This document shows positions 8,132-8,354 of a DNA stretch of 64,000 bases, piece by piece. The position numbers and the translations under genes are program-made. Under the pieces are notes generated by a model that was not told the origin of the DNA, ran no database searches, and worked only from the letters and a program-made list of their open reading frames with translations. The stretch comes from Eledone cirrhosa (taxonomy: Eukaryota): positions 31,620,001-31,684,000 of the forward strand of contig OZ024759.1 of the NCBI GenBank assembly GCA_964016885.1. Reading direction: 5' to 3'. Position 1 is the first letter of the stretch. Each line of letters starts with the position of its first letter.

Positions 8132-8211
8132 AGTTTATCCCAGGTTCAATCGTGGGTAACCACAGTAAGATACTCAATACATAGCAGAGTATAAATATTT
8201 AATATAGAAAT

Positions 8212-8262
8212 GGCTTCTACTGGACTAGAACAGTTTCATTCGGGAAAAATCATCAGGAAGCC
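8212..8262 (-). ncRNA. Type I hammerhead ribozyme motif (second family)
   Basis: Minus strand reads GGCTTC-CTGATGA-TTTTTCCCGAAT-GAA-ACTG-TTCTAGTC-CAGT-A-GAAGCC: perfect 6-bp stem I, 4-bp stem III, GUA cleavage triplet, and a weak stem II with one extra U before GAAA. Confidence 0.65.
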
Positions 8263-8354
8263 CTGATGATTTCTCCCGAATGAAACTGTTCTAGTCCTGT
8301 AGAAGCCATTTCTAGATTAAATGTATATACAGATATAGATAGATAGATAGATAG

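Follow-up and report, generated by a model that had tools for sequence, protein, structure and literature searches.

A near-perfect palindrome lies between two microsatellites in a stretch of Eledone cirrhosa DNA of 64,000 nucleotides (contig OZ024759.1, positions 31,620,001 to 31,684,000 of the forward strand), the whole of which is referred to here as the window. In an initial annotation, made from the letters alone, the palindrome was described as an inverted pair of hammerhead ribozyme motifs and was interpreted as a remnant of the terminal repeat of a Penelope-like element (PLE). The locus raises two questions: what kind of insertion it represents, and whether the motif that it carries is a ribozyme.

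The palindrome and its hammerhead-like junction

The insertion and its immediate surroundings are made up of the following features, given in window coordinates.

8071..8132, no strand: (TA)n microsatellite, adjoining the constant end of the element, which is the 3' side on the inferred RNA strand (window minus)
8133..8188, minus strand: constant, non-palindromic terminal region (the 'head'), corresponding to the last ~55 nt at the 3' end of the inferred RNA and common to 30 of 30 close copies
8189..8257, minus strand: direct copy arm, continuous with the constant end and containing most of the complete hammerhead-like domain
8212..8262, minus strand: hammerhead-like three-way junction, recognised by base-by-base reading, by a descriptor and by family conservation and pair counts
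8258..8261, no strand: turnaround spacer of 4 nt, AAGC on plus and GCUU on minus, belonging to the 5' arm of helix I
8262..8330, plus strand: inverted, doubly truncated copy of the terminal region, in which 8263-8308 comprises the core, helix II and a helix III with a mismatch
8331..8404, no strand: compound microsatellite (GATA)n(TA)n(GA)n, beside the variable end of the element, as read from the sequence

The palindromic arms (8189-8257 and 8262-8330) are each 69 nt long, are 93% complementary and are separated by the spacer of 4 nt. The inverted pair was therefore correctly recognised in the initial annotation, but its arms are 69 nt long rather than the ~60 bp claimed. Either strand of the palindrome folds into a single hairpin of -98.6 kcal/mol, compared with a shuffle mean of about -24 (z about -20.5), and none of 200 shuffles was as stable. 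The head of the window copy (8133-8188) has sustained a small deletion.

The junction was read base by base on the minus strand. The arms of helix I are GGCUUC (8262-8257) on the 5' side and GAAGCC (8217-8212) on the 3' side. The core is provided by CUGAUGA (8256-8250), GAAA (8237-8234) and A17 at 8218, the helix II region and its loop occupy 12 nt (8249-8238), and helix III consists of ACUG and CAGU enclosing UUCUAGUC (8234-8219). The hammerhead core, CUGANGA...GAAA with a residue other than G at H17, is thus present at a three-helix junction, and the cut is predicted to fall between 8218 and 8217, after GUA. This reading agrees exactly with the type I layout that had been proposed for minus 8262-8212. 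It also bears out the earlier description of the plus copy (8263-8308), which lacks the 5' arm of helix I and in which the helix III mismatch proves to be U-U. The window's helix III (8220-8233) is ACUG/CAGU and that of the family ACAG/CUGU; both sides of one pair differ from the family, and pairing is therefore intact on the minus strand and broken on the plus strand. A point absent from the initial annotation is that helix II of this copy is weak (U.U, U-A, U-A, U.G). Relative to its family the window copy shows slight decay, in that the C-G pair of helix II is missing.

Chance occurrence of the motif was assessed with a descriptor comprised of the core, a helix III of at least 4 bp, a helix I of at least 6 bp and H17 other than G, with helix II left unconstrained. 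The descriptor matched once in the window, and at least one match was obtained in 4 of 300 dinucleotide shuffles. A simpler pattern gave two matches against 0.25 expected, a count that was reached in 5 of 100 shuffles, and the 57-nt piece of the window was no more stable than its shuffles (z -0.28). By these tests the single window copy is weak evidence for a hammerhead, and the case consequently rests on the family. A weaker descriptor match is located at 6677-6729 on the plus strand. It combines CUGACGA with a long helix II region, a helix III made of A and U only and an AU-rich helix I of 6 bp; it is possibly the 'first family' of the initial annotation.

In intact, isolated 57-nt motifs the hammerhead fold lies 1.3-3.7 kcal/mol above the minimum free energy (MFE) structure, with probabilities of about 0.02, 0.03 and 0.002; the same measure gave a probability of 0.19 for the canonical Hammerhead_1 family of this genome, which is described below. 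In the whole palindromic element the hairpin reaches -122.7 kcal/mol and the probability of the hammerhead helices falls to 2e-56; the long hairpin thus outcompetes the ribozyme fold, in keeping with the competition between the two that had been proposed earlier.

Copies of the repeat and where they end

A search of the 3.0-Gb genome with the 142-nt query 8189-8330 gave 3,494 first-look candidates. Of these, 40 places were scored, and all were almost complete in length, with 93-100% identity in whichever orientation was the better. A 17-mer from the constant end matched the genome 21,111 times, compared with a single match for its reversed control, and a core motif pattern of 35 places (the core, the helix II frame, GAAA and half of helix III) gave 21,852 exact matches compared with none for the control. 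Diverged relatives (~82% identity) are also found within the window: a head with a very short hairpin at 1068-1149 (plus), a head with one arm behind (TA)n at 9735-9879 (minus), and a head with a single arm at 25232-25361 (plus).

Thirty close copies were aligned together with their flanks. The unit extends on one side only, with 55-75 unique nt before the palindrome, and no conservation is seen outside the flanking microsatellites; runs of at least five (TA) repeats occur within 120 nt on both sides in 25 of the 30. The orientation of the spacer relative to the constant end is fixed in 29 of these copies, the remaining one being unclassified. A second sample, of 94 head-anchored copies, was drawn from the first 30 places matched by the 17-mer and from 60 further stretches holding 64 copies, and was chosen without regard to sequence beyond the head. 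The constant end adjoins at least five (TA) repeats in 68 of these 94 copies and (CA)n in most of the others. The possibility that the element is a MITE was dropped on the basis of the flank alignment and of this unbiased sample, as unique nucleotides are present at one end only and the turnaround varies.

Sampled copies are comprised of the head, an adjoining body of variable length, a turnaround, an inverted copy that runs to a variable point, and then a microsatellite. Arm length varies: some arms are very short, others are 69 nt or 109 nt long (the latter with 97% complementarity), and the longest reach 231 nt and are fully (100%) complementary. The turnaround loops differ among copies, and the turnaround point of inverted copies varies between subfamilies, which themselves differ by only about 5-18%. 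An 18-mer over the window-type turnaround junction has 414 matches in the genome, another junction has 211 exact matches, and a further one has only 1. Tandem head-to-tail units with a hammerhead in each were not seen among the copies, which are dispersed, with occasional close pairs on the same strand. Non-palindromic full-length copies are ~600 nt long, non-coding, and start beside a (TG/TA)n tract. The element in the window is a whole short insertion and not the terminal repeat of a larger element, and the suggestion of a PLE terminal-repeat remnant was not supported.

One end of the element is constant and the other is variable and often inverted, and on these grounds the head would be the reverse complement of the 3' end of the RNA and the minus strand of the window would be the RNA strand. 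From the same combination of ends we infer a trace of 5'-truncating, target-primed reverse transcription.

Several individual copies are of separate interest. At one locus (L060:1000-1486) the family forms a palindrome of 487 nt, and the complete complementarity of its 231-nt arms points to very recent formation or to arm-to-arm correction. In palindromes that are otherwise alike (L066 and L147; L042 compared with L109 and L135) the central turnaround loop is found in either orientation, a flip-flop resembling that of hairpin ends. Long copies at five loci (L070, L074, L078, L079 and L084), mostly on contig 18, run into a tandem array with a period of ~48 nt.

The 5' limits of the direct copies were placed relative to the predicted cut in the sample of 94; on this scale the core starts at -39 and the 5' arm of helix I occupies -45 to -40. 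Sixteen copies extend at least 75 nt upstream. The limits of 50 copies fall between -51 and -36, at the 5' edge of the motif, where for some copies of diverged subfamilies the alignment to the two reference copies may stop through divergence alone. A further ten copies end between -32 and -9, five between -4 and 0, and 13 between +6 and +35; short-hairpin relatives such as that at window 1068-1149 are ambiguous for the 5' limit, as the turnaround lies within the small palindrome. An inverted arm of at least 12 nt was confirmed in 34 of the 50 edge-ending copies, with many different junctions, and at least six of the 50 are plain truncations beside a microsatellite or unrelated DNA.

The pile-up at the 5' edge of the motif, taken with the multicopy palindromic junctions, suggests that the motif and its 3' tail (~150 nt) may be the smallest unit that is still multiplying. 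A template-switch hot spot is the alternative explanation for the pile-up. At the predicted cut, the five ends within -4 to 0 compare with about two expected from the local density, which is no clear excess, and the copy ends therefore give no sign of cleavage in vivo.

The hammerhead-like domain across the family

In the undivided parent body the order of elements is the 5' arm of helix I, CUGANGA, UUUC-NNNN-GAAU, GAAA, helix III, U, A and the 3' arm of helix I. Helix III of the family has 4 bp and a loop of 8 nt, and the hammerhead-like junction lies ~95 nt from the 3' end of the inferred RNA strand. Inspection by eye of the constant tail reveals no CUGANGA core in it. The hammerhead-like domain is a property of the parent sequence and not of the palindrome; as the spacer is retained parent sequence, the 5' arm of helix I did not arise from the spacer by chance.

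In the family majority sequence the complementarity of helices I and III is preserved, and the proposal of a type I hammerhead-like motif in a repeat family was thereby upheld. The arms of helix I differ by subfamily yet remain complementary: they are GGCUUC/GAAGCC in that of the window, and AGAUUC/GAAUCU or GGAGCUUC/GAAGCUCC in others, and there are further arm types, a U-G version and one that contains a mismatch. At the sixth pair the subfamily of the window has G-C where others have A-U, and in a 37-row alignment one pair of helix I occurs as A-U (13 copies), C-G (9) and U-G (3). Across the 37 aligned copies, 79.8% of pairing cells are paired, compared with 73.8% in shuffles (0 of 500 reached the observed value), and only 35-50% of cells pair when the partner is slid by 1-3 columns. 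A stricter shuffle of the 15 distinct helix I arm combinations was not significant (4.33 compared with 4.21 pairs of 6; 635 of 2000 shuffles reached the observed value), and no covariation was found in helices II and III of the 37-row alignment. The covariation of helix I amounts to about two compensatory events between lineages. Helix I is formed by the open 5' and 3' ends of the motif, and all six of its pairs are present in 19 of 33 intact head-adjacent motifs and five of six in another 7.

Helix II does not start with the G10.1-C11.1 pair: this position is an unpaired U.U in 34 of 36 aligned copies. The A15.1-U16.1 pair of helix III is present as A-U in 32 of 36, and the other three pairs of that helix hold in 27-30 of 36. 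Loop II takes the form of 17 different tetranucleotides in the first 100 motif matches listed; in these, N7 is occupied by U, A or C, and variation is also seen at the wildcard base of loop III. The core is reached by 63 of the 94 head-anchored copies, and the common interior variants in these are at the fourth base of CUGAUGA, N7, loop II and two positions of loop III; there are no common variants in helix II, helix III or the remaining core bases, and the tail outside the hammerhead has more variable columns than the motif. Such a pattern of conservation is as would be expected for a constrained hammerhead, with part of it accounted for by common descent, since the subfamilies are young. Individual copies decay, and every core and stem base is kept in only 8 of 30 close copies.

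Searches with Rfam models did not recover this motif. At E up to 10, no hammerhead model was matched in 7700-8800 (44 matches) or in a consensus-like copy, L014:1540-1640 (24 matches). At the gathering score the window gave only one tRNA match and one tRNA-like match and no hammerhead, and in a scan of five loci no hammerhead appeared among the 150 of 218 matches listed. Models of miRNA hairpins were matched below threshold in 7700-8800, most strongly MIR6440 (51.1 bits, where the gathering score is 95). The window also contains a true tRNA, whose variable arm is long, at 12273-12354 (minus; 62.7 bits), and a tRNA-derived SINE with a (GAT)n-type tail lies directly after (TA)n at 35136-35400 (plus; Rfam tRNA, 29.2 bits). 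A tRNA-derived SINE head was considered for the family itself and rejected, as the constant end is merely T-arm-like and lacks box A.

Natural hammerheads may open helix II with a U10.1-U11.1 mismatch, and according to the relevant passages of Perreault et al. 2011 (PMC3088659) no other mispair had been shown to support as much cleavage as this mismatch. The hammerheads of those passages resemble the present family in the U.U start of helix II and in an otherwise standard core. By analogy with them, the missing G10.1-C11.1 lowers canonical membership and appears compatible with activity.

Relatives of the motif were also sought in metagenome data. The 42-nt motif had no exact match there, and a shorter pattern, of the core and helix II, was found in two related contigs (L163:176-231, plus; L164:197-252, minus). 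Both have the same UUUC-NNNN-GAAU helix II frame as the family, with its U.U start, but their layout is type III whereas that of the family is type I. The 7-bp helix I hairpin differs between them by one compensatory pair, the hammerhead fold is the MFE structure in one of the two, and neither was matched by Rfam at E up to 1. Given the published U.U variant and these two Rfam-missed contigs, the Rfam blank is weak evidence against activity; model-based scans overlook hammerhead-like motifs in which helix II opens with U.U.

Known systems, the driver of the family and rival explanations

A search of the literature for such a family, covering main texts, returned only general papers on hammerheads, PLEs and retrozymes. 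As they are portrayed in parts of PMC4209133 (Cervera and de la Pena 2014) and PMC8557442, the hammerheads of PLEs and of their non-autonomous derivatives resemble those of the family in being type I, in lying near the 3' end of a retroelement and in their very high copy number. PLE elements are also alike in having 5'-truncated copies, adjacent inverted 5'-truncated copies and insertion into microsatellites ((TA)n). Unlike PLEs, the family has no linked reverse transcriptase (RT) or GIY-YIG ORF and is not detected by Rfam. Its helix III has the full 4 bp and an 8-nt loop, whereas the PLE minimal hammerheads covered in those parts of the two papers have none or 1-2 bp, and it has neither G10.1-C11.1 nor the single extra base between 9 and 10.1, both of which are given there as typical of PLEs. 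Animal non-LTR retrozymes, according to sections of PMC7761336 (de la Pena et al. 2020) and bioRxiv 10.64898/2026.07.22.740005, are likewise short non-coding retroelements with a type I hammerhead and a strongly self-paired RNA, and those of invertebrates share with the family a stable helix III. However, retrozymes are tandem repeats of 150-300 nt that give circular RNA (sections of PMC7761336), whereas the family consists of scattered insertions, each with a single complete motif, and one cut therefore cannot free a unit.

The family appears to work in the manner of animal retrozymes and of those ends of Penelope-type elements that bear hammerheads. In the strict sense it is neither a PLE pseudo-LTR, as it has no ORF, nor a retrozyme, as it is not tandem. 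As judged from its sequence, the motif departs from the canonical hammerhead definition at one feature, G10.1-C11.1, for which a published natural exception exists.

The genome also harbours a canonical Hammerhead_1 family (RF00163), for which 74 candidates were scored, 72 of them at E up to 1 and 19 at the 34-bit cut-off; no copy of it lies in the window. Its hammerheads score 34-38 bits and have a helix II that begins with G10.1-C11.1 and a helix III of 2 bp. The two families are alike in having (TA)n flanks, inverted-plus-direct palindromes and a distance of 50-150 nt between motif and constant end. Loci L031-L038 belong to the canonical family, and the turnarounds of L031 and L037 differ. 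Outside the core the two families are unrelated in sequence, and a 3' module shared by them was not significant (local alignment score 18, equalled in 327 of 1000 shuffles). No RT or GIY-YIG was found within 1.5 kb of the canonical copies, where the 33 ORFs yielded one weak RVT_1 fragment.

The arrangement of the inverted pair is of the 5'-truncated, inverted kind described for Penelope-like elements, in line with the connection to PLEs made in the initial annotation; in the passages concerned of Craig et al. 2021 (PMC8557442), PLEs are heavily 5'-truncated and carry at their 5' end an inverted copy that is itself 5'-truncated. The same passages report a (TA)n bias for Naiads, and hammerheads near the 3' end for canonical PLE clades. 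Two traits of PLE pseudo-LTRs are present in the family, namely 5' truncation with an adjacent inverted 5'-truncated copy, and a bias towards insertion into microsatellites (68 of 94 copies at (TA) runs of at least five repeats). An ORF with RT and GIY-YIG that is flanked by the family repeat, as in a PLE pseudo-LTR, was not found among 140 ORFs from 50 loci. A search for an upstream PLE ORF had been proposed initially; the ~600-nt full-length copies are non-coding, and the family holds no PLE ORF.

Those 140 ORFs gave eight RVT_1 matches, of which the ones that were traced belong to a (GAT)n-tailed LINE with RT and PHD domains, and two GIY-YIG matches, both in 5'-truncated copies of an unrelated PLE. 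The LINE was rejected as a partner of the family on account of its (GAT)n tail and of its ending before the family element. That PLE, which is abundant (19,119 first-look candidates), has an intact ORF of 777 aa that runs from RT through a cysteine linker to a C-terminal GIY-YIG. It is represented at L093, L165:4022-6352 and L166:4072-6402, and many of the candidates have open frames. It was also rejected as a partner of the family: its 3' region is unrelated, and no hammerhead core lies within 1.5 kb of its stop codon. At the gathering score, Rfam found nothing in two 10-kb loci that contain it. In positions 1-20,000 of the window, none of 35 ORFs of at least 90 aa has an RT or GIY-YIG domain. 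The window does contain an uninterrupted frame of 589 aa at 12578-14347 (plus) with BRCT, helix-hairpin-helix and DNA polymerase beta/lambda fingers, palm and thumb domains, which is a family X polymerase gene or a retrocopy of one, and an ORF fragment of the prefoldin subunit family at 19690-20085 (minus; E 3.6e-10), probably an exon.

Spread of the family would have been by target-primed reverse transcription, with machinery most likely borrowed from a Penelope-like element. The chances that a PLE was the driver are about even, and a LINE is the main alternative.

The explanation towards which we lean, with some confidence, is that 8133-8330 is one insertion into (TA)n of an abundant non-coding repeat, formed by turn-back reverse transcription and carrying in each arm what is likely to be a true type I hammerhead of the U10.1-U11.1 kind. 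Reverse transcription would have copied the 3' end of the element and then, probably, turned back on itself to give the palindrome. In non-palindromic transcripts the motif may self-cleave after GUA, and in the palindromic form the 69-bp hairpin would exclude the ribozyme fold. The hammerhead likeness could instead be a relic or a coincidence, with the junction serving as a 3' UTR structure that is recognised by the reverse transcriptase, the RNA remaining uncut and the conservation reflecting recent common descent or that recognition. Rfam finds no hammerhead in either the window copy or the consensus-like copy; helix II is weak, at three pairs and a U.U, and neither it nor helix III covaries; the stricter arm shuffle was not significant (635 of 2000); the 5' ends are not in excess at the cut site; and subfamily divergence is only about 5-18%. 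All of this is as a relic or a recognition structure would have it. We nevertheless consider such a likeness without cleavage unlikely, as eleven core bases are found in a three-way junction exactly where a hammerhead has them, the few variable positions include N7, the only core position that is free to vary, hypervariability of loop II contrasts with the fixed frame of its stem, and helix I carries two compensatory changes. The U.U variant is, in addition, documented as active in the relevant passages of PMC3088659.

The two remaining alternatives concern the origin of the insertion. A SINE-like passenger of a LINE, rather than of a PLE, could have acquired its inverted arms by twin priming or by snap-back synthesis into (TA)n. 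The abundant RT-plus-PHD LINE with its (GAT)n tail repeatedly abuts family elements and (TA)n, and no PLE partner was found in the 3' region of the 777-aa PLE or in the two 10-kb loci. Inversions at the 5' end are known for L1, and microsatellite-specific LINEs exist. However, the 3' end of the element is unlike a LINE tail, and the reviews that the analysis covered connect the hammerheads of animal retroelements with PLEs and retrozymes, which leaves a LINE passenger somewhat improbable. Far less probable is a palindromic element that spreads at the DNA level (a MITE or foldback element) or a hairpin-RNA gene (a miRNA or siRNA precursor). Either would account for the near-perfect 69-bp hairpin, for the sub-threshold miRNA-precursor matches (51.1 bits for MIR6440, compared with its gathering score of 95) and for palindromic forms at 414 and 211 copies. 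However, the element is asymmetric, with its 55-75 unique nt at one end only, its arm length and turnaround point vary, non-palindromic copies of ~600 nt exist, and its true ends have no terminal inverted repeats; the miRNA matches are those of a generic hairpin and are below threshold.

The role of the hammerhead in Penelope-type retroelements is described as still open in parts of PMC8557442 and PMC7761336. A speculative extension of the reading as a self-cleaving U10.1-U11.1 hammerhead, and one that we regard as rather doubtful, is that an active, unusual hammerhead with a full helix III marks the 5' limit of the minimal unit and that the inverted arm acts as an off-switch, trapping the ribozyme in hairpin form and sparing uncut RNA for copying. 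If true, this would explain both the pile-up of turnarounds just upstream of the motif and the presence of palindromic forms at hundreds of copies, and it would provide a testable role for the long-unexplained hammerheads of Penelope-type elements. The family constitutes a large natural data set: its copies number about 20,000, and many of its inverted or truncated insertions are independent of one another. Its palindromic forms have multiplied although they are expected to silence the ribozyme, and the role of the hammerhead is thereby made testable.
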